From IMG/VR virus record IMGVR_UViG_3300045256_000094: 13,975 nucleotides of DNA; one strand, given 5' to 3'. The notes below the pieces were generated by a model. It searched no databases, had not been told where the DNA came from, and saw only the letters and a list, made by a program, of their open reading frames with translations. The position numbers were made by a program, and so were the translations under genes. The stretch is from a virus. Shown piece after piece: positions 2,046-13,975 of the stretch (the first letter of the stretch is position 1; every line of letters begins with the position of its first letter).

Positions 2046-3197
2046 TTAGCTCCCGATGCGTTTGACGAAGATCACGTTGAACAGGAAGATCGCCCCGATG
2101 ATAACAACGACCCCGAGGCAAATCCAGCCCAAGATGCTCCACGCCACGCCACCACCGCCGCTCCCGGTCGCCGGGCCGGACGTGTGGACGACCCGCACGT
2201 TCGGATTGTACACAGACTCGATGTAGTCCTGGTCGTACATCAGGGTCGGGTTGTCGTTGAACTCCGGGTCAACGTAGCCGGGGTTCCGGGCGTAGTTCTG
2301 CCGCTCCAGGGCGGCGATCCGGGCACGCACTTCGCCGTCTTGCAGCCCCCGCTCGTAGGCCGCTTGGTCAATGTTGTAGCGGTTGTGGTAGAACCAGTAC
2401 GCCCGCCGCTCCGCACTCCACTCCATCATCATGTACCAGAACGGGCTGCTGTACCCGCCACCGACGAAGATCACCGGCTGACTCTGGTAGTAGCTGTACG
2501 GGTGGCTGTAGTGGTAGTGGTGAACGTGCTTCACCGTGTAGTTGTACCGAACCTCCGGGTCCAGATCACGGCTCGGCCGGTTGCGAATCGTCTCGACGGA
2601 CGGAGCCTTCGGGTCAATCTTCACTTCCTTACCGTCCGGTGCCTTGTAGCTCGGCCGGGGCGGTGCCGTGGCCTTCGCCGTCTCCTCGTAGGTCCGCTTG
2701 CTGGCCTCTTCCCGGTTGGCCCGAGCCTTCTCGTCGTTGCTGTTCGTACCGGGCCGCTTGCTGCTGCCCGGAGGCGAAGACGGCGGCGGCGCACCCGCAC
2801 TCGGCGAACCGAACTTGCCCTTGTTGTCGTCCTTCTTGTCATCCGGCTTCTTGCTGTCGCCGCCACCACTGTTCGGCGAACCGAACTTGCCGCCACTCGG
2901 AGGCGGGGTCGTGGGTTGCTTCGGCGGATCGGCGGGCTTCTTACTGTCGCCCCCGCTGTTCGGCGAGCCGAACTTGCCGCCACTCGGAGGCGGGGTCGTG
3001 GGTTGCTTCGGCGGGTCAGGCTTCTGGCTGCTGCTACTGCCCGGCGAGCCGAACTTGCTACCGCTACCGCCGCTGCTGGCCGGAGGCGGTGAGCTTTGCC
3101 CGCCCGGCTTTTTGCTTCCGCTCTGGGCATCGGCGTAGCCGCCCAGCATCGCCATGCAGCCCATCAGGGCGATGCACAGTCCGATCCGTCGTAACAT
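2046..3197 (-). CDS. envelope protein (383 aa): signal peptide, Pro/Gly/Ser/Lys-rich tandem repeats, Tyr/His/Trp-rich domain, C-terminal TM anchor
   Basis: ATG 3197 is preceded by GGAGG with a 6-nt spacer. The N-terminus MLRRIGLCIALMGCMAMLGGYADA-QSG looks like a Sec signal peptide. There are four KFGSP-anchored repeats. The C-terminus WSILGWICLGVVVIIGAIFLFNVIF-VKRIGS is a hydrophobic helix. Confidence 0.85.
   Translation of the reverse strand: MLRRIGLCIALMGCMAMLGGYADAQSGSKKPGGQSSPPPASSGGSGSKFGSPGSSSSQKPDPPKQPTTPPPSGGKFGSPNSGGDSKKPADPPKQPTTPPPSGGKFGSPNSGGGDSKKPDDKKDDNKGKFGSPSAGAPPPSSPPGSSKRPGTNSNDEKARANREEASKRTYEETAKATAPPRPSYKAPDGKEVKIDPKAPSVETIRNRPSRDLDPEVRYNYTVKHVHHYHYSHPYSYYQSQPVIFVGGGYSSPFWYMMMEWSAERRAYWFYHNRYNIDQAAYERGLQDGEVRARIAALERQNYARNPGYVDPEFNDNPTLMYDQDYIESVYNPNVRVVHTSGPATGSGGGGVAWSILGWICLGVVVIIGAIFLFNVIFVKRIGS
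2802..3056 (-). repeat. in-frame coding tandem repeat with an 87-nt (29-aa) unit
   Basis: 2869..2927 and 2956..3014 are identical except for 1 mismatch in 59 nt, at an offset of 87 nt. At protein level the unit is KFGSPNSGGDSKKPADPPKQPTTPPPSGG, with diverged flanking copies. KFGSP occurs at residues 48, 75, 104 and 128. Confidence 0.9.
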
Positions 3198-3253: not shown

Positions 3254-4480
3254 CTAGATTCGTTCCAAGCGAAACATGCCGAGTTTCCACATTGCATTTT
3301 GCAACGTGATAAGGGCTGTGGCGATGGCGTACTTGAACCCTCGGCGACCACCTTGAATCCGCTCCCGCTCGTAAGCCGACCCCATGAGACGGGCAAGCTC
3401 GTGACAGTAGTTCGCCAGCCCGGCCACATCCTTTGACTCGACGGCGTGTTTCCACCAGTAGGTCAGGTACGAGGACATCCCGAGTAACTTCACGTCGTCG
3501 TCGGTCAGGTCGAGCGGAGCATTCGGCGTATCGGTCATGCCGTGGCAAGCCGACTGCACACGAGTCTCGGTGTAGGTAATGTACATCCCCGGCGAGTCCA
3601 CCTTCGTCCACTTTTTGACTTCAAACTTCACGTCTGAAGACCGGCTCACGGACAACAGGTTCCAAGCCAGGACGTTCCACGCCAGCTTGCGGCGTTCGGT
3701 CGGCGACTCGATGGGCGGGTCGAACCCGTCCTCGATCATCCGCATGGCGTCGTCTGCACTGAGGGCAGTGCCCTCACGAGACTTCATCTTCTTCCCATCG
3801 TCCCCCAGGACGAGGCCCATAGGTAGATGATACCGCTCCAAGCCCAGGTTGTAAAAGTGTTCCTTCTGCTCCATGCCGGTAACGTACCACAACTCCCCCT
3901 CCACCATCTTGCGGAAGGCAAGGTCGTAGTAGGCGTAAAGCGGACTCCCGTCCGCCCGCTTTAGGATCACTGGCGTGGAGGGGTGGGCGTCGTCCCACAT
4001 CCACGGCTGCTCGTGTTCTTCGAGTAGAGGACTGCCCTCTTCCTGATACGTCCGGCGATGGCACGGCACGATGTCGTCCGGCATCAGCACGTCGTAGTAA
4101 AGCTTCGGCTTATAGCCGACGAAATTACACCACCGCTCGAAGCCGGTCAGGGCGAAGCTCTTTACACCGAGCGATGCCCCCAACAGAGCAACCGGCTGGG
4201 AATACGGCAACACTCGTGAGAGCGAGTGGGCCACGGCGAGGTTCCGCAGGTGCCCGACGTGGAGAGCCTTGTTCAAATTTGGACTGAAACCGTCGATCAG
4301 CATCCCCGCACCGGGGTTGGTCGGTGCGGCCTCGGGCCACCGATAGTTTTCCGCAGTGAAGTGGTAGTTGTGGAACCACTTCTGAGGATCGTGGCGGTAG
4401 CCCTTCGCACCCTCAAGCGGCTGGTTCGTGGTCACGCCGAAACCGTGCTTCGTCGGCATCGGGCGTAGCTTCGACTCCAT
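3254..4480 (-). CDS. arginyl-tRNA synthetase-like class I aaRS paralog (408 aa), lacking the canonical N-terminal domain
   Basis: ATG 4480 is preceded by AGGAG with an 8-nt spacer. The HIGH motif sits in ArgRS context (FSPNLNKALHVGHLRN). Other ArgRS-like blocks are ILKRADGSPLYAYYDLAF, LWYVTGMEQKEHF and GDDGKKMKSREGTAL (the KMSKS/MSTR position). The helical C-terminus ending LGMFRLERI resembles the DALR anticodon-binding domain. Confidence 0.85.
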   Translation of the reverse strand: MESKLRPMPTKHGFGVTTNQPLEGAKGYRHDPQKWFHNYHFTAENYRWPEAAPTNPGAGMLIDGFSPNLNKALHVGHLRNLAVAHSLSRVLPYSQPVALLGASLGVKSFALTGFERWCNFVGYKPKLYYDVLMPDDIVPCHRRTYQEEGSPLLEEHEQPWMWDDAHPSTPVILKRADGSPLYAYYDLAFRKMVEGELWYVTGMEQKEHFYNLGLERYHLPMGLVLGDDGKKMKSREGTALSADDAMRMIEDGFDPPIESPTERRKLAWNVLAWNLLSVSRSSDVKFEVKKWTKVDSPGMYITYTETRVQSACHGMTDTPNAPLDLTDDDVKLLGMSSYLTYWWKHAVESKDVAGLANYCHELARLMGSAYERERIQGGRRGFKYAIATALITLQNAMWKLGMFRLERI

Positions 4481-4600: not shown

Positions 4601-6076
4601 ATGACAGATGTTAAGAATGTAATCAAGATAGAGAACGTCTACAGTTGGCTAATCACGGAGAACATGGGCCTCCGGGAAACGCTTTGTAAGGCTCTCAAAG
4701 TCCCCGCCAAGAACTACTGGCATTCTACCGCATACAAACGCAAGATTTGGGACGGACACATCGAGTTCTTTAAGAAGAACTCGGGCATGTTCTACTCCGG
4801 GCTTCTCCCCGAAGTCTGCGGCATCCTCTCGCACCTTAACGAACCCTACACCATCGCCGACCACCGAGGGGCGATCCAGTGGGGGCAAAAGGTCGTTGAC
4901 GAGAACTTCCTTCAGCAGTTCCAGAAGAAGGGCAGCAAGCCGCTCACCCTCTACGACTACCAAGTGGAGTACGTCAACCTCGCCCTGAAGTACGGCCGGG
5001 GCGTCATCACCGCCCCCACGGGTGCCGGTAAGACGAACGTCCTGATCTCGATCCTGAAGTGCCTGCCGCCCAAGACGCCGGTCCTCTTCATGACGAAGGG
5101 TGCGGGTCTGGTCGATCAGAACTACGCCGAGATGCTTCAGTGGGGCGTGCCGAACCTGGGCCGCTACTACGGGAAGTACAAAGAGCCGAACTACGTCATG
5201 TGCTGCACCATCCACCAGGACACGCTCAAGAGCATCGACAAGCTCTTGCCGAAGTTCAAGGTGCTGATCGTGGACGAGGTTCACGAAGCCATGAGCGACA
5301 CGCCCATCGCCGCCTACAAGAAGATGAAGGAGGCGACGTACCGCTTCGGGTTCTCGGCCACCCCGTTCAAGTACACGTCGAAGGACAACAAGGGCAACGA
5401 GATTTCGAAAGATAAGGAACACAAGTACAACGTCAAGGCTCACTTCGGGGCCAACTTCAAGCTGTCCTGCACGCCGTCGGGCAAGCTGACGACGAAAGAC
5501 TTGCAGGAGCGGGGCATCCTGTCGCCGAGCCGCTGCACGATTTACCCGATCAACGAGCCGGACAACATCCAGCACGAGCCGTATGGGGACGCTGTTACTC
5601 TTGGCATCTCCAACAACATGTACTTCCACCAAGTCATCATGCGACTGGCCCGGAAGCTGGAGGGGCGCACCCTCATCATGGTGGAACGGATCGACCAGGG
5701 GAACTACCTCAAGTCCCTGATCCCCGAGGCACACTGGATCAAGGGCGACGTGGCGGTTGGCGACCGGGCCACGATCTTCGGCGAGTTGAAGTACAGCGGT
5801 GAGAAGGTGATCTGTATCGCTATGCGACAGATCGTCACCGCCGGTATCAACGTGTTCGTCCACAACCTGATTAACGCATCAGGCGGCAACGCCGAACACA
5901 ACATCATTCAGCAGATGGGTCGTGGGCTGCGGTCCGCCTCAGACAAGAACGTGCTGGACTTCTACGACTTCCTGTTCACCACCAACGCCTACCTGCGTGA
6001 CCACTCCCTGAACCGCATCCGGGTTCTGGAGAGCGAGGGCCACGAGATCACCGTCAAAGAGAAGATCGACTTCTAA
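4601..6076 (+). CDS. SF2 DNA helicase, UvsW-like (DEAD/DEAH-box, ResIII-type)
   Basis: Motif I is ITAPTGAGKT, motif II LIVDEVHEA, motif III FGFSATP, motif VI QQMGRGLR. The N-terminal segment KIWDGHIEFFKKNSGMFYSGLLPEV resembles the T4 UvsW N-domain (WDGRIRLL...LPFGLV), recalled from memory. Confidence 0.9.
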   Translation: MTDVKNVIKIENVYSWLITENMGLRETLCKALKVPAKNYWHSTAYKRKIWDGHIEFFKKNSGMFYSGLLPEVCGILSHLNEPYTIADHRGAIQWGQKVVDENFLQQFQKKGSKPLTLYDYQVEYVNLALKYGRGVITAPTGAGKTNVLISILKCLPPKTPVLFMTKGAGLVDQNYAEMLQWGVPNLGRYYGKYKEPNYVMCCTIHQDTLKSIDKLLPKFKVLIVDEVHEAMSDTPIAAYKKMKEATYRFGFSATPFKYTSKDNKGNEISKDKEHKYNVKAHFGANFKLSCTPSGKLTTKDLQERGILSPSRCTIYPINEPDNIQHEPYGDAVTLGISNNMYFHQVIMRLARKLEGRTLIMVERIDQGNYLKSLIPEAHWIKGDVAVGDRATIFGELKYSGEKVICIAMRQIVTAGINVFVHNLINASGGNAEHNIIQQMGRGLRSASDKNVLDFYDFLFTTNAYLRDHSLNRIRVLESEGHEITVKEKIDF

Positions 6077-6816
6077 TACCCACAACTCCAGGTCTTGCCG
6101 TTCCAGGTCAAGCCCTCGGTGTTGTGGGTTCCCGCCCGCAGCTTTTCAAGTCGCTGGCCGATGATCTCGTACCGCTTCCTGAAGTTAAACAACGCACCCT
6201 CGTCGATCCCCGGCACGAACAGGGCAGAGATGCCGCCGTAGTGGTACACCTTCTCGAACAACTGCGGGTATTCCACAACATCGTAGCCGAGCAACTGAGC
6301 GGCGAGGTACACCATCGCCCCGCCGTCGAAGTATTGCTTGAACGGGATGTTCATGTACGGTGCCCACGAGAAGTGTTGCGTAATCTTCCTGATCTTCGCC
6401 GTGTTGAACAGGGCGAACGAGTGGTCGATCTTCTTCTGCCCACGGAGCGGGTATCCGGCGAACGTACACTCGCCCGTCGTGTGCGTGTCGGCCACGCACA
6501 GGGCGTTCTCCGTCATCTTGGACATCAACTCTGGGACGATTGGGCCGAGGACTTCCACGTCGCTGTCCACCGTCAGCAGGTACTCCGTGTCCACGGCACG
6601 CATGAGCGTGTCGAGGTTGCTACCGAAGTTGCACTGCTCGGTGTTCTGGATGAAGAAGTTGGCGTGACTTGCTGCGTAAGCGTTAGCACCATCCGAACTG
6701 GCGTCGTCGATGACGACCCACTTATAGTTCGGATGGTACTTGGAGAACGACTCCCACATGAGAGCGAGAGCCGTTGCGGTGTTCCTGACGGTGGTGACTA
6801 CTGTGACATTATCCAT
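6073..6816 (-). CDS. GT-A fold glycosyltransferase (family 2-like), soluble, 247 aa
   Basis: The N-terminus VTVVTTVRNTATALALMWESFSKYHPNYKWVVIDDASSDG is a typical GT2 opening. The DxD motif is in LTVDSDVEV. No TM segments. No clear SD before ATG 6816, which lies 12 nt after the HNH stop. Confidence 0.75.
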   Translation of the reverse strand: MDNVTVVTTVRNTATALALMWESFSKYHPNYKWVVIDDASSDGANAYAASHANFFIQNTEQCNFGSNLDTLMRAVDTEYLLTVDSDVEVLGPIVPELMSKMTENALCVADTHTTGECTFAGYPLRGQKKIDHSFALFNTAKIRKITQHFSWAPYMNIPFKQYFDGGAMVYLAAQLLGYDVVEYPQLFEKVYHYGGISALFVPGIDEGALFNFRKRYEIIGQRLEKLRAGTHNTEGLTWNGKTWSCGY

Positions 6817-6828
6817 GCCATAGAGTAG

Positions 6829-7605
6829 TCACGCCACGGCGTAGTCTTCGCAGAACTTACGGTCCACCCGCCAGTAGTCGGGCATGAACTTCGGCTTCAT
6901 CGTGTCGAGGAAGTGCTGCCTCCAGAACTTAGCGAACTCGTCGAAGTCCTTCACCTGGGCCATCACCTGCGCACCGAACCCCTGCCCCGAAGACGGAGGC
7001 TTGGGCTTCAGCTTCGCCAGTTCTTTGATCTCGGCGTCCGTTGGGACGTGCCCCAGGGCTTCCTGCAACAACAGCTTCATCACCACGATCCGGCCCGGCG
7101 GAATCTTGTCGCCGTGTTCCGTCAGTGAACGGGCCAGCCCCCGGACGTACATCTCGTCCCGGAAGTTCTCCTTCATCCCCGAAAGCGGGATGCCATACAA
7201 CTCCGAGAAGTGCTTCCGCTTCTTCTGCGACTCCTCTTCGTACTTGGTGTGGCACGAGGTACAGGTCGGCAGAACGTCGTGGCTGTTGTGCTTCTTGTGT
7301 GAGTTCGGCATGTGCCGCAGGAACGACCACGGCACGACATGGTGCCGGTTCAGGTCTTCCGTGGCCCCGCAGACGACGCAGTGGTTCGGCTTGGGCAACA
7401 GCGTCCAGGGGTCTTTCATCCCCCGACGGCCGCTCGGCTCGAACTTCAGCTTGATGGTGATCGGGTCGTCGGCCACCTTGTCGGCCAGCCCACGCTCCAA
7501 ATACCAGTCGATCCGCTTCTTCTCGCACCGGCCGGTAGGTTGGCCGTCCGGTGCGAGGATCAAGCAGTTGTCAAACAGAACTTGAGTGGCTGCGTTGTTT
7601 GGCAT
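6829..7605 (-). CDS. HNH-motif nuclease (258 aa) with extra N- and C-terminal regions
   Basis: CVVCGATEDLNRHHVVPWSFL...HNSHDVLPTCTSCHTKYE fits the CxxC...HH...N...CxxCH pattern of an HNH / His-Me finger. Confidence 0.75.
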   Translation of the reverse strand: MPNNAATQVLFDNCLILAPDGQPTGRCEKKRIDWYLERGLADKVADDPITIKLKFEPSGRRGMKDPWTLLPKPNHCVVCGATEDLNRHHVVPWSFLRHMPNSHKKHNSHDVLPTCTSCHTKYEEESQKKRKHFSELYGIPLSGMKENFRDEMYVRGLARSLTEHGDKIPPGRIVVMKLLLQEALGHVPTDAEIKELAKLKPKPPSSGQGFGAQVMAQVKDFDEFAKFWRQHFLDTMKPKFMPDYWRVDRKFCEDYAVA

Positions 7606-7611
7606 ACTCCA

Positions 7612-9318
7612 TTATACCTTGAGTTCAAGGGCGTCCATTTCCTTTTTGAACTTCGCCGGGTCGGCCTTGAACCACTCGGGTAGCAGGCTTCGCCGGGTGC
7701 AGTTCACAAGGGCTTGGAGGGTCTGGTAGCGACGGGTGTCGCCGATGTTCGGGTCGATCATGTCGTCCAGCACGGCCAGGGCGTCCTGATACGTCTTCAC
7801 CTTCTTCGCCTTCAGGCGACTCCTCAGTGAAGCGTAGGACGCCGCCGAGTAGTCCTTCGTGACTTCGACCAACTTCTGCATCTCGCCTTCGTTCAGGTCG
7901 ATCCCGACCGGCTTCATCATCCAGTGGATGAAGTCCTTCTGGTCTTCGCCTTCCGGGTCGAGGATCGGAATGATGAGATCGCCCACCCGCCCCGGACGCC
8001 GGATGTCGGCACTGAGGAGGTTGATCCGGGCCGTCATGAGCAGCCACACGATCTTACCCTTCAGGCGGGGGTCGGACATCATCGCCTGAATCTTGCCGGT
8101 CAGCCGCCGCTCCGTCTCGTGCGTATCTGCCCCGACGCCGCCGAACTGAGTGTCGGCCTCATCAACGAAGATGGCGAGCCGGTCCAGGGCTTCGGCCACC
8201 CGGCGGATTCGCTCGAAGGTCACGTCCGTCTGGCCGAACCACTGGCTGCGGAGGTTCTTCAACACCATCACCGGCATGTCCAACTCGGTGACGGCTGCCT
8301 CCATGATGAACGTCTTACCGCCGCCGATGGGACCGCCGATGGCGGCACCGGCCAGGGCTTCGTCCCCGCCCGCCTTGATCCGGGGGATGAACTCGTCCCG
8401 GAGGAACTTCTTGATCTGGCGGAAGCCCACCACGTCGTCGAGCCGGTGGTTCGGCTTCTTGAACTCCACCACGTCTTCACCAATCTGAGACGTGATGAAC
8501 TCGGCCACCTTGTCCACCACGTCGGCGACGGTGATGCCTTCGCCGTCGCAAAGCAGTTGGCGGTAGCCGTGCAGCGACAGCCCGGCCGTCATCTCGTCGA
8601 TACGGTCGAGCGTCTTGAGGTTCGGGAACACCGTCGTGCGGAACTGCCGCCGCTCCTCGACGTTCGGGCTGGAGATTTGGACTTCCAGCAGTTGCGGAAG
8701 TTGGGCGATAGATGAGTTAATCAACCCACGGGTTTCCGCCATGAAGATCACGCTGTCGTGACCGTTCATGAACTTCGGGTCGCTGAGCCAGTCCTGCACC
8801 ACGGCGATGCGCCGCCGGTCGGCCCAGCCCAGGGTCGCCGTCTGGCCGACGGGCAGGAGGAAGTCCGCCGCCTCAATCACGATGACGAGATCGTTCTTCA
8901 GCTTCATCTTGCGGCCGACCAGGGCGAGTTGCCGCAGGAACTCCATCGCCAGGGTCGGGTTCTCGACGGTCTGTCCGATCAGCGTGTCGAAGTCGTTGGG
9001 GTTCGGGGCGGTTTCCTTCTGTCGGGCCAGGGACGTGACCTGCCGCCGGGGGTTGATGCCCTTGAACTCGTTGAAGGCGTTGCGGAGTTCGTCTTCGTTG
9101 TTGACCACCCGGACAGCCCGGTTGATCTCGTACACCACGACGGTGACGCCCCGGTTCGTCTCGGTGGCGGCGATCTGGCACTTCGTCGCAAGGTAGTCCA
9201 CTAGCGGGACGCACTCCTTGCCGTCGAAGAACAAGTCGTTGATGTTGCCAGTCAGCAACACGGACCGACTCTTGCCGTTGTTGATGATCTTGGCGAGCTT
9301 CGGGTAGAACTCCAGCAT
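7612..9318 (-). CDS. two-domain AAA+ ATPase (568 aa): degenerate N-terminal AAA-like domain plus a classical AAA C-terminal domain
   Basis: Walker A is GGPIGGGKT (8311..8337) and Walker B is LAIFVDEAD. The second region of homology is LLMTARINLLSADIRRPGRVGDLI, as in the classical AAA clade (RPGRFD). The N-half has LLTGNINDLF and VIVIEAADF where Walker A and B would sit, both degenerate. Confidence 0.85.
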   Translation of the reverse strand: MLEFYPKLAKIINNGKSRSVLLTGNINDLFFDGKECVPLVDYLATKCQIAATETNRGVTVVVYEINRAVRVVNNEDELRNAFNEFKGINPRRQVTSLARQKETAPNPNDFDTLIGQTVENPTLAMEFLRQLALVGRKMKLKNDLVIVIEAADFLLPVGQTATLGWADRRRIAVVQDWLSDPKFMNGHDSVIFMAETRGLINSSIAQLPQLLEVQISSPNVEERRQFRTTVFPNLKTLDRIDEMTAGLSLHGYRQLLCDGEGITVADVVDKVAEFITSQIGEDVVEFKKPNHRLDDVVGFRQIKKFLRDEFIPRIKAGGDEALAGAAIGGPIGGGKTFIMEAAVTELDMPVMVLKNLRSQWFGQTDVTFERIRRVAEALDRLAIFVDEADTQFGGVGADTHETERRLTGKIQAMMSDPRLKGKIVWLLMTARINLLSADIRRPGRVGDLIIPILDPEGEDQKDFIHWMMKPVGIDLNEGEMQKLVEVTKDYSAASYASLRSRLKAKKVKTYQDALAVLDDMIDPNIGDTRRYQTLQALVNCTRRSLLPEWFKADPAKFKKEMDALELKV

Positions 9319-9968: not shown

Positions 9969-10324
9969 TTCTTCTCCTCGTTGTTCGCTTTCACTTGCTC
10001 GTAGCGGATGTCCACCCTGATCCGTTGGTAGATGGACATGTAGAGAACGGCCGAGGCCCAGGTTACGCCGTGGGCCAGCACATACCCCCGCCAGTCATCA
10101 TACCACACCTGATGGCGGAATACGAGCATCATCAGGAGCGTGAACCAGAACGAGAAGCAGTATTCGCAGGTCGGGATGTAGCACACCTTCCGTACCAAAT
10201 ACGGGAGGGTGTGATCCTTGCACCACGGCTGGAAGTAGTTCTTCCGCAGGTCGCTGAAGACTTCTTCCTTCGTGGCAGCCCACGAGAACACCGCCACCAT
10301 CGCCCCGATGATGATCGCTTCCAT
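9965..10324 (-). CDS. three-TM membrane protein (119 aa), possibly DUF1360-like
   Basis: Start trimmed to ATG 10324 (MEAIIIGAMVAVFSW...), which overlaps the Pnkp-like stop (TAATG). The Cys-bearing TM segment IPTCEYCFSFWFTLLMMLVF recalls the C-x-W-C-x-S-x-W helix of DUF1360; this is from memory and unverified. Confidence 0.65.
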   Translation of the reverse strand: MEAIIIGAMVAVFSWAATKEEVFSDLRKNYFQPWCKDHTLPYLVRKVCYIPTCEYCFSFWFTLLMMLVFRHQVWYDDWRGYVLAHGVTWASAVLYMSIYQRIRVDIRYEQVKANNEEKK

Positions 10325-11271
10325 TAGTTGAAGAACTCCTCGGTGTGCATGTACTTGAACCCGCACCGGGCAGCAGCCGTCTCGTCCGTCTTCTGGTCCC
10401 CGACGAACAAGCACTTCGCCGGGTTCAGCTTGTACGTCTCGATCATCAGTGCCCCGATACCGGGGTGCGGCTTCCGGCAGTAGCAGTTTACCGGCGGGAT
10501 GTTATGAGGACAGAAGAAAAATGGAATATCCATCCCCAGCAGGGCGTTCGTCTTCTTGAACGCCTTGATGACGTTCTCCTCGGTGCAATGCTTCTTGGCG
10601 ATCCCGCTCTGGTTCGACCAACCGAGAACGTGATCCGGCTTGAAGTCGTCGATGTACTTCTTGATCCGCTCGGCACGCCCCGGCAGCAGGACGACTTCCT
10701 CCTCGCACGTCGGGAAGTCGAACTTCGACCCGGCGGGCGTGTCCCGGAGGTTGCCGTCGTAGTCGAGGATCAGTGCGCTGTTCTTGTACTCCGGCCCCCA
10801 GACCCGCTTGAAGTCCCGCTCAACCACGCTGGAGAACCCCTCGCCGGTGCGGGGCTTTTCGAACAGCTTTCGGTAGTTGAACAACGCCACCGGCGGGAAG
10901 TGGTTCGGGTTCTTGGTCGTCTTGAAATCCTCGGGCATGAGGAGCTTGCCTGTTTGGCGGATCATCCGCAGACAGGCGTTGAGTTGTGCGTCCTCGAAGC
11001 TCGTGCTGAGCCAGACGCAGTTGACCGGGATTTTGTTATCCTTCCCGACCTTGATGACCGACGCCCGGCTCTTGGCGTCCGGGTAGGTGTTGTCGAGAAT
11101 GAAGAGATTGCCGCCCTTCTTGATCCGCCGTTCGAGTTCCTGGGCCACGCCCTCCAGCGTCCCGCCCATCTCGTCCCGGTTGAGCCGGTCATACCCCTTC
11201 GCAACGTACTCCGCTGCGATGGTGGACTTGCCCGAAGCGTTGTAACCCAGAAGGACGACAATCTCGCTCAT
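10324..11271 (-). CDS. bifunctional P-loop polynucleotide-kinase-like / HAD-IIIA phosphatase (Pnkp-like, 315 aa)
   Basis: Start trimmed to ATG 11271 (GAGG 5 nt upstream). Kinase half: GYNASGKST, LNRDE and FILDNT parallel T4 Pnk GCPGSGKST, INRDD and IISDTN. Phosphatase half: LILDYDGNL (motif I), WSNQSGI (motif II), CPH...CYCRKPHPG (Zn-loop plus motif III Lys, as in GmhB/HisB-N), FVGDQKTDETAA (motif IV). Confidence 0.85.
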   Translation of the reverse strand: MSEIVVLLGYNASGKSTIAAEYVAKGYDRLNRDEMGGTLEGVAQELERRIKKGGNLFILDNTYPDAKSRASVIKVGKDNKIPVNCVWLSTSFEDAQLNACLRMIRQTGKLLMPEDFKTTKNPNHFPPVALFNYRKLFEKPRTGEGFSSVVERDFKRVWGPEYKNSALILDYDGNLRDTPAGSKFDFPTCEEEVVLLPGRAERIKKYIDDFKPDHVLGWSNQSGIAKKHCTEENVIKAFKKTNALLGMDIPFFFCPHNIPPVNCYCRKPHPGIGALMIETYKLNPAKCLFVGDQKTDETAAARCGFKYMHTEEFFN

Positions 11272-11273
11272 GA

Positions 11274-11609
11274 CTACCTCGGTTTCACTAAGTCGTAGTG
11301 GTAAGCCCGATCCGTCTCCACACCGTCTTCGGACAGCCCGATGCCGGGTTTCGGCATCTTGTACTTGGCGTCCTTCTCGTACTTCGTCTTCGTGTTGAAG
11401 TAGAAGTGGCGTGTCTCCACGCCTTCCTGAACCTTGAAGTGGATGACGACCTTTTCGGGCATCCACCCGTTGACGACCGGGACTTTGAAGTCCAGGCCGT
11501 CAACCTTCACATACTCCACCGAGTCGATCTCGCTGTCCAGGTGGTAACTTGACTGCGGGTTTGACACCACCCCCAATGTGAGGGCCAGGGTCAAGAGCAT
11601 TCCTTGCAT
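11274..11609 (-). CDS. small secreted protein (111 aa), unknown function
   Basis: Start trimmed to ATG 11609, with AGGAG in the 11-nt gap after the ABC ATPase stop. N-terminus MQGMLLTLALTLGVVSNPQSS looks like a signal peptide. The stop lies 2 nt before the Pnkp-like ATG. Confidence 0.7.
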   Translation of the reverse strand: MQGMLLTLALTLGVVSNPQSSYHLDSEIDSVEYVKVDGLDFKVPVVNGWMPEKVVIHFKVQEGVETRHFYFNTKTKYEKDAKYKMPKPGIGLSEDGVETDRAYHYDLVKPR

Positions 11610-11620
11610 CCTTCTCCTTG

Positions 11621-12526
11621 TTAGACAACACTGACCTTCGAGTTCCAGAAGGTTCGCCCGACTTCGGGGATGATCGTCTCGTTCTGGTCGAACACGATCT
11701 TCCTCAACTCGGCCTTCTGGTCGGCGAACCGACTGAAGTCCCTCGGGTCGTCCGGGTGAAAGACCGGAGCGGGTTGATCGTACACGATTGTGGCCCCACA
11801 TTCAACTCCCCGTTCCTTCATCGTGGGGCACGTCCAGTAGCGGCTCAGCCCAACCACCCGGTCGGCGAGGTAGAACGCCTCGTTGAGTTCGTGCGTGACG
11901 AACACCACCGTGTACGGTGGCGGCAGACCCGCCTTCTTCGCCGTCAGGTTGTCCTGGTAGAGCCGCAACAGCAGGTGTTGCAGGTCTTCACGGGTCGCCT
12001 CGTCGAGCGCACCGAACGGCTCGTCGAGCAAGAGAATCTTCGGCTTCATAATCAACGCCTGGGCGATGCTCACCCGCTGACGCTGACCACCCGATAGTTG
12101 GGTTGGGTAACAGTCCATCGACCCGTCCAGATCGAAGTCCGTCAACATCTGCTTGGCTTCAGCCCGGTACTTCCGTTTCAGGTCACGCAGCATGAACGGG
12201 CGGAACACCCGGCCGAGGAAGCTCGTTTGGTCGAGGATCGGCCCGACGGCCACGTTGTCGAGGGCGGTGAGGAACGGGAACAGGGTGTACTGCTGGTACA
12301 CGATCCCGCAGTCCCGGCTCGGCCCGATAACTTCCTTCCCGTCCACCATGATCGCCCCTTCCATCGGCGGGTCGGTGCCGAGTATGGCCCGGAGCAGGGT
12401 GGACTTGCCGCAGCCGCTCGGCCCGACCAGGGCGACGAACTGCCCGGCGTCCACGTCGAGGTTGCAGTGGTGAAGCACCCGCTTCGTCTTGAACCAGTGG
12501 TTAACGTGCGTGCAACGTAACAGCAT
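11621..12526 (-). CDS. ABC transporter ATP-binding protein, NitT/TauT (nitrate/sulfonate/taurine-type) family, with a ~50-aa C-terminal extension
   Basis: Walker A is GPSGCGKST, the Q-loop is in IVYQQYTLFP, the signature is LSGGQRQRVSIAQAL, Walker B is ILLLDEPFGALD, and the H-loop is VVFVTHE. AGGAGAAG lies upstream of ATG 12526. Confidence 0.9.
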   Translation of the reverse strand: MLLRCTHVNHWFKTKRVLHHCNLDVDAGQFVALVGPSGCGKSTLLRAILGTDPPMEGAIMVDGKEVIGPSRDCGIVYQQYTLFPFLTALDNVAVGPILDQTSFLGRVFRPFMLRDLKRKYRAEAKQMLTDFDLDGSMDCYPTQLSGGQRQRVSIAQALIMKPKILLLDEPFGALDEATREDLQHLLLRLYQDNLTAKKAGLPPPYTVVFVTHELNEAFYLADRVVGLSRYWTCPTMKERGVECGATIVYDQPAPVFHPDDPRDFSRFADQKAELRKIVFDQNETIIPEVGRTFWNSKVSVV

Positions 12527-12554
12527 CTTGCTTCTCCTGTGGTTTGGCGTTGAG

Positions 12555-13382
12555 TTACTTCCCGTTCTCGAACCACGGAGACACCTTGTCCCGCAGCTTC
12601 AGCAGCGACCAGTCGAGGACGTACCCCAGCAGGCCGAGGACGATGATGTAGTTGTACACAATGTTCATGTGGCTCATGCGGCTCTCGATCCGTAGCCGGT
12701 AGCCGATGCCCACGTTCGCACTCGCCCACTCGGCTGCGATTAGGAACACCATCGCCGGACCGACGGCCAGTCGCACCGACTCCACCACCCGTGGGAAGAT
12801 CATCCGCAGGATGACGTTCCACACTACCTCGAAGTTGCTGGCACCCAGCGTGTACGCCTTGTTCACCAACTCGTCCGGCACGTCGTACTTGGCGCTCTGG
12901 TACACGGTCATGGTCAGAGCCGGGATGATGCCGAAGGCGATCATCATCACGAACATCTTGAACTCAGTGCCGAACAGGATGAAGAACACGGCGAGCATGG
13001 CCGTCGGCGGGATTTTCGAGAAGAAACTGAGGACGGGATGGAACAGTGCCTCGATCTGGGCGAAGCACGCCATCAGTAAACCCACCAGCAGCGAGAAGGC
13101 GATACCAAGTGCCATCCCCGCCGTGTAGCGGTAGCCCGTGGCCTGCACGTCCTCCCAGAGCGGGATCGTGTGGGGCGGTGACTTGCTGGGGCTGGTGATC
13201 TCCAGCAGTCCCTTGTAGATGTCCACGACGCCCGGCATCGTGGTGTCCTTCGGGTTCTGCTCGTGCTGTCGGATCGACAGGAACTCGTAGAAGGCAAACA
13301 AGACCAGCACCGACACGATCCCGAGGACTACTTGGGTCGTCTTGGAGATGGGCTTGCGAATGACTAACTTTTTGGGTCGCAT
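12555..13382 (-). CDS. ABC transporter permease, NitT/TauT family (275 aa)
   Basis: Multi-TM protein with the EAA-loop region KAYTLGASNFEVVWNVILRMIFPRVVESVRLAVGPAMVFLIAAE, typical of SsuC/TauC/NrtB-type permeases. GGAGG lies 6 nt before ATG 13382. Confidence 0.88.
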   Translation of the reverse strand: MRPKKLVIRKPISKTTQVVLGIVSVLVLFAFYEFLSIRQHEQNPKDTTMPGVVDIYKGLLEITSPSKSPPHTIPLWEDVQATGYRYTAGMALGIAFSLLVGLLMACFAQIEALFHPVLSFFSKIPPTAMLAVFFILFGTEFKMFVMMIAFGIIPALTMTVYQSAKYDVPDELVNKAYTLGASNFEVVWNVILRMIFPRVVESVRLAVGPAMVFLIAAEWASANVGIGYRLRIESRMSHMNIVYNYIIVLGLLGYVLDWSLLKLRDKVSPWFENGK

Positions 13383-13404
13383 CGGTGTCCTCCGTGGTTA
13401 CATC

Positions 13405-13432
13405 AGTCTACCGCATCAGGGGTGGTTTGTAA
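13405..13432 (-). promoter_or_regulatory. possible promoter for the permease-to-GT2 operon
   Basis: Minus strand: TTACAA (13427..13432), 16-nt spacer, TAGACT (13405..13410), 22 nt upstream of ATG 13382 and immediately downstream of the terminator. Each hexamer matches consensus at 4 of 6 positions. Confidence 0.3.
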
Positions 13433-13442
13433 TGGGTTTGGG

Positions 13443-13474
13443 AAACAAAAACGCCACGGCTAACTGCCGTGGCG
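13443..13474 (-). terminator. Rho-independent terminator after the substrate-binding protein gene
   Basis: A perfect 9-bp stem (13452..13460 cgccacggc pairs with 13466..13474 gccgtggcg) has a 5-nt loop. On the minus strand it is followed directly by TTTTTGTTT. It lies 24 nt after the stop at 13499. Confidence 0.85.
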
Positions 13475-13498
13475 TCTGGACGATCAGTGGCAGGCCGG

Positions 13499-13975
13499 TC
13501 ACTTCTTGGCAGGCCCGGCTTCCGCCGCCTTGATCCACTTGGCGGCGTCGAAGTTCAGGTCGGCCTGTGTGTCCCCGTATCCGATGCTCGGGGTCTTGGT
13601 GACGATCCCCCGCTCGACGCAGAACTTCACGATCTCGGTCTGCGTCTTACGGAACTGCTCGTCGTAGACGATGACGCCGATCTCGTCGTCGCCGTAGAAC
13701 TTCGTCTCCTTGCAGCACTGACGCATGTCGGCGGCGTTCAGGTTGCTGAACTTGGCCCCGAGGGCGACGAACGCCTCGTCGGTCGTCAGCATCTCGTTGG
13801 CCTTGTAGAACGTCTCGATGATGCAGCAGGCCGCACGGTCCCCGCCCGGCTTGGCGAGGCTGTCGGTGCTGAACGCCACGCTGTCCACGATCTCGCCGGG
13901 GATCAGGCTGCTGTCGGCGAGCCGGTGGGCCTTGTCGTTGGTGCGGAGCGTCTGGAGGACGAACGGGTTCCACAC
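13499..13975 (-). CDS. ABC transporter periplasmic substrate-binding protein, C-terminal ~158 aa (gene continues beyond the right edge)
   Basis: The ORF is open to the window edge, so the apparent GTG start at 13975 is an edge artefact. It lies upstream of the cognate permease and ATPase. The assignment rests mostly on operon context; the sequence (..IPGEIVDSVAFSTDSL...NFDAAKWIKAAEAG) is compatible with NMT1/SsuA-like binding proteins, but I cannot verify this. Confidence 0.6.
   Translation of the reverse strand: MWNPFVLQTLRTNDKAHRLADSSLIPGEIVDSVAFSTDSLAKPGGDRAACCIIETFYKANEMLTTDEAFVALGAKFSNLNAADMRQCCKETKFYGDDEIGVIVYDEQFRKTQTEIVKFCVERGIVTKTPSIGYGDTQADLNFDAAKWIKAAEAGPAKK

Follow-up and report, generated by a model that had tools for sequence, protein, structure and literature searches.

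Which ends or molecules are modified by a protein that joins a P-loop kinase to a HAD phosphatase and is encoded by a large phage? Our material was a single 13,975-nucleotide stretch of the phage DNA (about 14 kb, hereafter the window). The start of the gene was fixed at the ATG at 11271, which has a GAGG sequence 8 nt upstream, because the homologs are of nearly constant length with aligned N-termini; the TAA stop codon lies at 10324-10326 on the minus strand (Table 1). A longer reading frame with a GTG start (10324-11466) was rejected: it would run into the upstream gene, and the N-termini of the homologs coincide with the ATG. The gene is under purifying selection, with dN/dS = 0.13 as measured against the ortholog of locus L002 (77% identical). 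Its product is a single polypeptide with the kinase domain preceding the HAD domain. The AlphaFold2 model of the 315-residue protein has a mean pLDDT of 90.3, and PADLOC assigned the protein to no defence system. All motifs listed in the initial annotation were recovered in the protein at the residues it had assigned. The Pfam, NCBIfam and PDB matches described below, together with the pLDDT and dN/dS values, indicate that these motif matches are not due to chance.

Table 1. Positions in the window of the kinase-phosphatase gene, of its domains and motifs, and of the ArgRS-like gene
Feature	Coordinates	Strand	Remarks
Kinase-HAD phosphatase gene, complete, 315 aa + TAA stop	10324..11271	-	Homologs 309-315 aa, N-termini aligned
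N-terminal P-loop polynucleotide-kinase-like domain, residues 1-160	10792..11271	-	AAA_33; TIGR01663; mouse PNKP
P-loop GYNASGKST, residues 9-17	11221..11247	-	G9, G14, K15 invariant in alignment A1
NRD, residues 31-33	11173..11181	-	D33 corresponds to mouse PNKP Asp396 (general base), R32 to Arg395; invariant in the family
DNT, residues 60-62	11086..11094	-	T62 corresponds to mouse Thr423 (backbone phosphate contact)
C-terminal HAD-IIIA phosphatase domain, cap-less, residues 164-315	10327..10782	-
HAD motif I DYDGNLR, residues 170-176	10744..10764	-	D170, D172, L175, R176 invariant
HAD motif II SNQS, residues 219-222	10606..10617	-	In 118/120 homologs
Predicted zinc loop C254-x-H256-x6-C263-x-C265, then motif III R266-K267-P268	10468..10512	-	Pattern in 120/120 close homologs
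HAD motif IV GDQKTD, residues 291-296	10384..10401	-	GDxxxD in 119/120 homologs
ArgRS-like gene	3254-4480		HIGH motif (HVGH) and KMKS motif kept

The kinase half was compared with domain models and with solved structures. The window protein matched Pfam AAA_33 (E 1.4e-9) and, over residues 2-160, the kinase part of NCBIfam TIGR01663 (5e-20), the whole-protein score for the latter (71.3 bits) being below the equivalog cutoff of 502.8. Searching the PDB with the single sequence retrieved the mouse PNKP kinase domain with E 1e-15 and about 30% identity, and the family profile scored it at 80.7 bits. T4 Pnk (1ltq) was found by the single sequence with E 0.037 over residues 1-41; with the family profile, the match (6.9e-7) was limited to residues 1-67. 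Thus, the description of this half as a T4-Pnk-like kinase is correct in a broad sense, but the domain is far nearer to eukaryotic PNKP. All solved structures matched by sequence were polynucleotide kinases, namely mouse PNKP, fungal Trl1 kinase domains, T4 Pnk, Capnocytophaga Pnkp1 and C. thermocellum Pnk, and no small-molecule kinase was matched among solved structures at E<=0.01. In mouse PNKP, Asp396 is the general base while Arg395 and Thr423 contact the DNA backbone, as was experimentally tested; a glycine occupies the position of Asp396 in 6-phosphofructo-2-kinase and in UMP/CMP kinase (PMC2764422). In our alignment, the corresponding residues D33, R32 and T62 are invariant across the family.

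These observations bear on the idea that both domains act on a small molecule, either a sugar phosphate or a nucleotide or NAD/ADP-ribose derivative. One possibility would be that one hydroxyl is phosphorylated and the distal phosphate removed, following the logic of HldE and GmhB, with a product supplying glycosylation or NAD/ADP-ribose metabolism. We regard such a role as unlikely. The kinase half argues against it, both by matching only polynucleotide kinases among solved structures and by the retention of the general base and of the backbone-contact residues, whereas the zinc loop of the phosphatase half, a hallmark of GmhB and HisB-N, speaks in its favor.

In the phosphatase half, all four HAD motifs are intact and the TIGR01662 HAD-IIIA model was matched with 48.0 bits, above its subfamily cutoff of 44.6. 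The segment carrying the predicted zinc loop and motif III (residues 254-268) reads CPHNIPPVNCYCRKP. Its Cys/His ligands are kept in all of the 120 closest homologs and lost in some remoter phage members, such as those of the L043 type, and bacterial members. The pLDDT of the model drops at the loop (76-79), which would be expected if it is modelled without its metal. The ligand spacing, 2-7-2, is presumably that of E. coli HisB-N. The initial annotation had assigned this half to the zinc-loop HAD-IIIA phosphatases of GmhB/HisB-N type, and the above-cutoff score and the C-x-H...C-x-C pattern ahead of RKP agree with a HAD-IIIA core bearing such a loop.

Within motif I, the nucleophile is predicted to be D170 and the acid/base D172, with N174 at a position where T is usual. 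Among 120 homologs, this fifth position is T in 98, N in 10, V in 9, C in 2 and another residue in 1, DYDGT and DYDDT being the commonest forms. Judging from this alignment, asparagine is a recurrent minority state and not a family trait. The DYDGN motif, previously singled out as atypical, is a minor variant, and the weight placed on N174 is not supported. That N174 might mark an inactivated enzyme was also considered and rejected, since the other catalytic motifs are kept, the variant occurs in several sublineages and dN/dS is low.

Similarity searches with this half gave mixed signals. Pfam PNK3P (PF08645) matched the window protein with 23.6 bits, above the gathering cutoff of 22, and is present on most homologs in precomputed domain lists; HAD_PNKP (PF25109) gave no match at E<=0.01. 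GmhB was retrieved from the PDB with E 6e-11. With the family profile, GmhB scored 61 bits, HisB-N 42 bits and the mouse PNKP phosphatase 30.2 bits. However, the NCBIfam GmhB models remained far under their cutoffs (PRK08942, 52.6 vs 178; TIGR00213, 29.4 vs 149.6; NF050049, 26.4 vs 250), as did a further GmhB/HisB model (17.5 vs 140), which argues against a sugar phosphate as the substrate.

The resulting protein resembles several known systems. Like T4 Pnkp (PseT; AAA_33 + PF25109), it is phage-encoded, measures about 300 residues and has an N-terminal P-loop 5′-kinase and a C-terminal DxDxT-type phosphatase; the predicted chemistry is the same and RNA ligases are found beside family relatives. 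Unlike it, the window protein has a zinc loop and lacks PF25109, and the similarity is marginal and confined to the P-loop region. Eukaryotic PNKP (TIGR01663; 1yj5, 3zvl) and its giant-virus homologs have the closest characterised kinase domain, with conserved counterparts of Arg395, Asp396 and Thr423, and share a cap-less HAD-IIIA phosphatase with TNQ/SNQ and RKP motifs that PNK3P matches. PNKP is nevertheless organised as FHA-phosphatase-kinase, while here the order is kinase-phosphatase and no FHA domain is present. The profile alignment also shows a 15-residue insertion after the kinase lid helix, PNKP has no zinc loop, and it is a DNA repair enzyme whereas the family associates with RNA-repair genes. 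As for GmhB/HisB-N, these give the best sequence and fold matches of the HAD half and share the zinc loop ahead of RKP, but here the HAD domain is joined to a PNK-type kinase, the annotated neighbours offered no heptose or histidine pathway context, and some family members do without the zinc ligands. Finally, fusions of a HAD phosphatase to an N-terminal polynucleotide kinase, termed 'PKN-HAD', have been described by Iyer et al. 2021 (PMC7824862). According to that survey, the linear phosphatase that accompanies ATP-dependent RNA ligases in jumbo phages is usually such a fusion, and the distribution of the fusions is congruent with that of these ligases. The example given there, QAX98520.1, may be of the T4 type, and a zinc-loop PNKP-like lineage is not singled out in the passages on these fusions (PMC7824862).

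The family is large, with 415 representatives at E<=1e-30, and constitutes an uncharacterised lineage that is not of the T4 type. Most phage members are carried by contigs of 50-620 kb. A genome scan with peptide patterns yielded only 4 MAG contigs, an artefact due to patterns that were too narrow. That the family is restricted to phages was rejected, as an exhaustive profile search revealed a large bacterial branch. More than 100 bacterial relatives, MEM1178980.1 for example, are fused at their N-terminus to an apparently intact aldo/keto reductase. The usual substrates of this domain are small carbonyl compounds. A text search of the literature returned nothing relevant linking GmhB or aldo-keto reductase with polynucleotide kinase. 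The fusions count in favor of a small-molecule substrate; the bacterial genes are solitary, in unrelated contexts and with no conserved partner (L070-L072), which counts against it. The family as a whole may also be a third, previously unrecognised lineage of nucleic-acid end-healing enzymes. The cellular reductase-kinase-phosphatase would repair oxidative breaks bearing a 5′-aldehyde and a 3′-phosphate, by a sequence that may run from reduction to 5′-OH through phosphorylation to 3′ dephosphorylation. Large phages would have taken the kinase-phosphatase core, which may be kept beside a T4-type Pnkp for ends or substrates beyond the reach of the latter. We consider this proposal very doubtful.

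Gene neighborhoods in related phages were then informative. Of 56 phage loci, 24 have an RNA-repair gene within 10 kb of the family member, and at least four distinct arrangements occur among them. In 17 of these 24 loci, a canonical T4-type Pnkp, encoded as a separate gene, lies 1-3 kb away. In the corresponding clade, the family member and the T4-type Pnkp are accompanied by RlaP, an RNase T-like exonuclease, an AAA ATPase, two Rnl2-like genes, one Rnl1-like gene and a calcineurin-like phosphoesterase. The T4-type paralog in one such locus, L034, matches PF25109 with 2.4e-47. In these loci, the family member is thus a second, non-redundant paralog. Elsewhere, Rnl2-like ligases and a kinase-only gene stand 4-8 kb away (L003, L021 and L017, with a cREC_REC gene in between in L003), a ligase at 1.6 kb (L037), or RlaP at 2-3 kb (L043, L050 and L053). 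In the complete 595-kb phage LR756511.1, the family member is the sole Pnkp-type gene detected; Rnl1-like, Rnl2-like and RlaP genes are 50-110 kb from it and 63 tRNAs are encoded elsewhere in the genome.

Coexistence with an RNA-directed T4-type Pnkp would be accounted for if the family member were specific for DNA, restoring 3′-P/5′-OH ends at nicks and breaks of the phage genome so that a DNA ligase can act on them, in the manner of mammalian PNKP. The adjacency in 17 loci does argue for a different substrate, the closest characterised kinase homolog is a DNA repair enzyme, and genes for RecA, a PD-(D/E)XK nuclease, a RecD-like helicase and a Toprim protein occur near L043, L050, L056 and L062. 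Still, we hold DNA specificity to be quite unlikely. What recurs in the neighbourhoods is RNA ligases and RlaP rather than DNA ligases, and in LR756511.1 no other candidate was found that could heal ends for the RNA ligases there. The preference of mouse PNKP for recessed duplex DNA involves Arg403, Arg432, Arg482 and Lys483 (PMC2764422). Arg403 and Arg432 are matched by no conserved basic residue in the aligned family sequence, and Arg482 and Lys483 fall beyond the aligned region.

Other neighbours in several phage clades, namely CinA/PncC, an ADP-ribosylglycohydrolase, a PARP-like protein, PRPP synthetase, a nucleoside hydrolase and glycosyltransferases, would suit a small-molecule substrate, as would the GT-A gene inside the window. 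Yet GmhA, HldE/HddA and sugar nucleotidyltransferases were all missing from the annotated neighbour families of 63 loci. The glycosyltransferases vary from locus to locus, which also weighs against that substrate. The sugar-phosphate role offered earlier as an alternative is thus weakened by the GmhB scores and by the lack of a heptose-pathway neighbour; a more general small-molecule role keeps some ground through the bacterial reductase fusions.

The window itself presents a different context. In agreement with the initial annotation, no ligase is recognisable in it. No tRNA gene was found inside the 14 kb either, nor RlaP or an anticodon-nuclease gene. Searches with the genes at the window's edges led to contigs of 2-3 kb at most. 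A lack of ligases within 14 kb does not amount to their absence from the element, named earlier as a refutation, since in the complete relative LR756511.1 the ligases are 50-110 kb from the gene. Within the window's own clade, no ligase, tRNA, RlaP or nuclease gene occurs within 10 kb of the family member. Its neighbourhood there conserves genes for an ABC importer, an AAA ATPase, a helicase and an ArgRS-like protein; in sister loci, a CinA/PncC-like gene also sits immediately upstream, and an ADP-ribosylglycohydrolase gene is present. The initial proposal paired the enzyme with the ArgRS-like paralog in a module that would maintain tRNA(Arg) against an anticodon nuclease targeting it. The ArgRS-like gene does keep both synthetase signature motifs and is 6-8 kb from the kinase-phosphatase gene in 8 loci (cluster 28). 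However, it is absent near the family member in every other clade, and the genes in between (AAA ATPase, HNH endonuclease, GT-A glycosyltransferase, helicase) are unrelated. The window lacks a tRNA(Arg), a ligase and a nuclease with which such a module could be completed. Moreover, the healing step of T4-type repair is not known to be specific for a tRNA species. The tRNA(Arg) theme is accordingly not retained, and we judge it extremely improbable.

The reading that we favor, with moderate confidence, is that the protein is a bifunctional polynucleotide 5′-kinase/3′-phosphatase of a distinct lineage that heals broken RNA or DNA ends. It is based on domain homology, on conservation of catalytic and acceptor-site residues, on purifying selection and on the association with RNA-repair genes in relatives. 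Both activities, any preference for RNA over DNA or the reverse, and a partner ligase in the window's phage are inferred. The N-terminal domain would transfer the gamma-phosphate of an NTP to a 5′-OH polynucleotide end, with D33 as general base and R32 and T62 gripping the backbone. The cap-less HAD-IIIA domain would take off a 3′-phosphate via an aspartyl-phosphate intermediate on D170, and possibly also act on a 2′,3′-cyclic or 2′-phosphate, the structural zinc loop shaping the substrate entrance. Together, the two activities would produce the 5′-P/3′-OH ends that ATP-dependent ligases require. In a large phage, the enzyme would most plausibly work together with RNA ligases from other parts of the genome to counter the cleavage of tRNA or other RNA by host nucleases.

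End healing is favored because the kinase half matches only polynucleotide kinases among solved structures and keeps their general base and backbone contacts, because PNK3P is above threshold and the profile matches both halves of mouse PNKP, and because of the RNA-repair neighbours, the gene content of LR756511.1 and the low dN/dS. Against it stand the importer and ArgRS-like neighbours found in place of repair genes in the window and its clade, the closer similarity of the HAD half to sugar and amino-alcohol phosphatases than to PNKP, the bacterial reductase fusions, and the adjacent T4-type Pnkp, beside which a second enzyme of equal activity needs justification. The earlier proposal that the protein is a polynucleotide kinase/phosphatase-like fusion of a kinase with a HAD domain is supported. 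Its extension to RNA repair and counter-defence is the best-supported role, on the strength of related loci and of LR756511.1, the window contributing none of that support.

The survival of a phage attacked by host ribotoxins, for example anticodon nucleases, the collateral cleavage of Cas13 or toxin RNases, hinges on end healing. To our knowledge, T4 Pnkp has been the sole phage paradigm for this step so far. A large and differently built family, mostly on large phage contigs and often beside a T4-type enzyme, suggests that phages divide RNA/DNA repair between different enzymes, and the bacterial reductase fusions offer a concrete handle on a possible extra specificity. Even if the activity turned out to be ordinary, a correct annotation would replace the labels 'HAD-IIIA hydrolase', 'histidinol-phosphatase family' and 'heptose bisphosphate phosphatase' that hundreds of genes currently carry.

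The kinase-phosphatase gene lies within a tightly packed run of minus-strand genes. The stop codon of an upstream 111-aa gene precedes its ATG by 2 nt, and its own stop overlaps, as TAATG, the start of a gene for a 120-aa membrane protein. Every motif that the initial annotation had reported in the protein was recovered with the same residue numbering. In Pfam, the protein matched generic HAD models as well as AAA_33 (1.4e-9) and PNK3P (23.6 bits against a cutoff of 22); in NCBIfam, its kinase part matched the PNK-3'Pase model TIGR01663 (5e-20) and its score with the HAD-IIIA model TIGR01662 exceeded the cutoff. An AlphaFold2 model, proposed as a check with the initial annotation and built on 28 homologs (mean pLDDT 90.3), predicts a P-loop kinase followed by a cap-less Rossmann-type HAD. 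Comparison with the ortholog of locus L002 (77% identical) gave a dN/dS of 0.13, with dS near saturation. Several independent lines agree, and these features exceed chance.

Coordinates of features in the window, in the kinase-phosphatase and in related loci (L numbers, loci carrying family members)
Feature	Location	Strand	Remarks
383-aa protein	2046-3197	-	N-terminal hydrophobic leader, C-terminal membrane helix, Ser/Pro/Gly-rich middle
ArgRS-like protein	3254-4480	-	408 aa (bacterial ArgRS ~580 aa)
Helicase	4601-6076
GT-A glycosyltransferase	6073-6816
HNH/DUF968-type endonuclease	6829-7605	-	After AAA+ ATPase
AAA+ ATPase	7612-9318	-	568 aa; CDC48-like ATPase core, long unmatched N-terminal half
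Kinase-phosphatase gene	10324-11271	-	315 aa; ATG at 11271, GAGG 8 nt upstream, TAA stop
GYNASGKST	residues 9-17		Kinase-phosphatase
NRD	residues 31-33		Kinase-phosphatase
DNT	residues 60-62		Kinase-phosphatase
DYDGNLR	residues 170-176		Kinase-phosphatase
SNQS	residues 219-222		Kinase-phosphatase
CPHNIPPVNCYCRKP	residues 254-268		Kinase-phosphatase
GDQKTD	residues 291-296		Kinase-phosphatase
ABC importer ATPase	11621-12526	-
ABC importer permease	12555-13382	-
ABC importer binding protein	from 13499	-	Cut by window end (importer 11621-13975)
NAD/ADP-ribose-type neighbour genes	L009 9352-9900; L012 16692-17738; L021 6691-7962; L010 11262-12242
T4-type Pnkp	L034 11239-12198		PF25109, 2.4e-47; equivalents in 16 further loci
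CUA tRNAs	L003 19432-19599; L021 18565-18639; LR756511.1 179588-179661

The kinase had been described as T4-like, which holds in a broad sense only. In a PDB sequence search, the match to mouse PNKP had an E value of 1e-15 and that to a GmhB one of 6e-11, whereas T4 Pnk reached 0.037 over the P-loop region only. With the profile of the kinase-HAD family (homologs joining a PNK-type kinase to a zinc-loop HAD-IIIA phosphatase), the kinase stretch scored 80.7 bits on mouse PNKP as compared to 32 bits for the whole of T4 Pnk. Tests of the mouse PNKP kinase site (Bernstein et al. 2009, PMC2764422) identified Asp396 as the general base activating the 5'-OH, and Arg395 and Thr423 as residues in contact with the DNA backbone; where PNKP has Asp396, 6-phosphofructo-2-kinase and UMP/CMP kinase have Gly. 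In HMMER alignments, Asp396, Arg395 and Thr423 pair with D33, R32 and T62, all three invariant in the family. The preference of PNKP for recessed duplex DNA depends on Arg403, Arg432, Arg482 and Lys483 (PMC2764422), which have no conserved counterpart in the family within the aligned region. From this pattern we infer an acceptor site that would fit a polynucleotide without the duplex specificity of PNKP.

By sequence, the HAD half is closest to GmhB (61 bits), followed by HisB-N (42 bits) and the PNKP phosphatase (30 bits). Because the protein scores far under the cutoffs of the NCBIfam GmhB and HisB models, it was not filed as either enzyme. The asparagine that had led motif I to be called atypical is real, but the emphasis placed on it is unsupported: the fifth residue of the motif is T in 98 of the 120 closest homologs, N in 10, V in 9, C in 2 and another residue in one, and the recurring N variant occurs in the nearest relatives of the window and in a few other sublineages. 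N174 was rejected as an inactivating change since every other catalytic motif is kept; the nucleophile and acid/base aspartates, the motif II Ser, the motif III Lys and the motif IV GDxxxD are conserved. The zinc loop noted initially is indeed present, its Cys/His ligands being kept in all 120 close homologs, but it is not universal. In some more distant members, comprising phage loci L031, L043, L050, L053 and L059 and some bacterial proteins, the ligands are replaced while the loop length is kept, so that the predicted zinc site looks structural rather than catalytic. These zinc-less phage members also keep the RKP motif (for example FASDRGGPPVSYWRKP), and are useful natural variants for probing the role of the loop.

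The family is large and without a characterised member. A word-indexed search returned 288 homologs, of which many lie on contigs of 100-620 kb, and profile searching carried out exhaustively over 1.84 billion cluster representatives gave 415 family representatives at E<=1e-30. In IMG/VR there are 59 loci, the majority on contigs of 50-570 kb; in BFVD, giant-virus PNKPs and T4-type phage Pnks were the nearest entries, with nothing closer. Roughly one in three of the best representatives has a length of 500-1060 aa. Of ten long ones scanned, eight have an aldo/keto reductase (PF00248, 1e-13 to 1e-60) N-terminal to the kinase-HAD module, one has WD40 repeats and one no recognisable extra domain. 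More than 100 reductase fusions come from Acidobacteriota, Myxococcota and Gemmataceae assemblies, on contigs of up to 738 kb. The bacterial fusions (P0146, P0274, P0158, P0198 and over 100 others) consist of a ~190-aa conserved region of unassigned function, the reductase, the kinase and the HAD, and the DTAD.Y, ATK and QLH motifs of the reductase are kept; protein P0158 has a further C-terminal extension of ~300 aa. In three bacterial loci (L070-L072) the gene stands alone in varied, unrelated surroundings. Together with the GmhB/HisB-like phosphatase half and the NAD/ADP-ribose and glycosyltransferase neighbours of several clades, these fusions would suit a kinase/phosphatase of small molecules. 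We consider such a role unlikely, given that, among solved structures, the kinase half matches exclusively polynucleotide kinases by sequence and that no conserved sugar pathway partner was found among the annotated neighbours. An aldo/keto reductase joined to an end-healing enzyme is odd. Strand breaks caused by C5'-oxidation leave a 5'-aldehyde and a 3'-phosphate. Speculatively, on this chemistry and on domain logic, the fusions might repair such breaks by reduction, then phosphorylation, then dephosphorylation; we regard this as a long shot. If true, all three domains would act on nucleic acid.

Loci L066-L069 lie on contigs binned as Polyangiaceae, Gemmataceae/Gemmatales and a Promethearchaeota MAG. 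They are probably phage contigs swept into MAG bins, and the bins may hint at phage hosts. The GC content of the window (59%) would fit a Planctomycetota or Myxococcota host.

To study the context of the relatives, the ORFs of 63 loci were clustered and searched with cluster-derived profiles. Of the 56 loci carrying a full-length member, 24 have an RNA-repair gene no more than 10 kb away, in at least four arrangements. A 17-locus clade with 40-46% identity to the query shares a conserved island, ordered as adenylosuccinate synthetase, RlaP (PF10127), RNase T-like exonuclease, AAA ATPase, family gene, T4-type Pnkp, Rnl2-like ligase (PF09414), Rnl1-like ligase (PF09511), second PF09414 ligase and calcineurin-like phosphoesterase. 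The Pnkp of this island, 0.9-2.7 kb downstream of the family gene, is canonical (AAA_33 and HAD_PNKP); two different kinase-phosphatases are kept side by side in the 17 loci. In L003 and L021 (56-58% identity to the query) and in L017, a kinase-only gene and either one or two PF09414 ligases follow 4-8 kb downstream, in L003 with a cREC_REC gene between them. A ligase lies 1.6 kb from the family gene in L037, and RlaP 2-3 kb from it in the zinc-less L043, L050 and L053. A healer specific for DNA ends would neatly account for the coexistence with T4-type Pnkp and would agree with the PNKP similarity; with RNA ligases as the recurrent neighbours, we hold it to be quite improbable. In L058 (1-20927), the family member sits inside a 24-tRNA array, with 14 of these genes upstream of it, 10 downstream and none more than 10 kb away.

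The best match in the phage collection, the uncultured phage LR756511.1 (56% identity), was searched with profiles over its complete 595-kb genome. It has a single family member at 101.9 kb, Rnl1-like (8.8 kb) and Rnl2-like (156 kb) genes, RlaP at 209 kb and 63 tRNAs; the profile detected no T4-type Pnkp. The family gene is thus unclustered, yet ligases are present, and no other Pnkp-type healer was found. The window itself contains no ligase gene, as initially stated, and no tRNA or Rfam match. Since the ligases of LR756511.1 lie far from the family gene, the lack of one in 14 kb says little. Several related huge phages carry CUA-anticodon tRNAs (amber suppressors; tRNA-Pyl according to ARAGORN), a hint of TAG recoding in their genomes. 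The window genes read normally in code 11.

Gene order in the window is kept across its own clade (L002, L009, L011, L012, L014-L016, L022), where the AAA+ ATPase (cluster 40) is retained as a neighbour of the kinase-phosphatase and no RNA-repair gene occurs within 10 kb of the family gene. In sister loci, a CinA/PncC-like gene lies directly upstream of the family member and an ADP-ribosylglycohydrolase downstream. Clades without nearby ligases have CinA/PncC-like, ADP-ribosylglycohydrolase, WGR-PARP-like and PRPP-synthetase-like neighbours, genes typical of counter-defence islands. The ArgRS-like protein keeps the HIGH motif intact (as HVGH) together with a KMKS motif, shows a weak DALR anticodon-binding domain, lacks the N-terminal domain and matches solved ArgRS structures weakly (1e-8). 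Its gene is conserved within the window's own phage clade only, and this co-occurrence in one small clade is all that speaks for a tRNA(Arg)/ArgRS module, which we judge very improbable. Of the RNA/tRNA-repair theme proposed initially, the ArgRS link is therefore unsupported, whereas end healing of the RNA-repair type is plausible from the relatives' loci.

The ABC importer, a three-gene cargo unusual for a phage, is found just upstream of the kinase-phosphatase, and in the same place in L002, L009, L011, L012, L015 and L022; its binding protein weakly resembles urea/NMT1-type binding proteins. The 383-aa protein has a near-perfect ~30-aa repeat (KP.DPPKQPTTPPPSGGKFGSPNSGG) in its middle, no family match and no exact sequence on record elsewhere.

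This kind of enzyme is already known: according to Iyer et al. 2021 (PMC7824862), the ATP-dependent ligases of jumbo phages usually have a kinase-HAD fusion as their partner. The present family differs in its PNKP-like kinase, its zinc-loop HAD-IIIA phosphatase, the T4-type Pnkp kept alongside and the bacterial reductase fusions. Overall, we favour, with moderate confidence, a bifunctional polynucleotide 5'-kinase/3'-phosphatase, in a lineage distinct from T4 Pnkp and from eukaryotic PNKP, which would most likely serve the phage, alongside ATP-dependent ligases, in repairing RNA cut by host nucleases.
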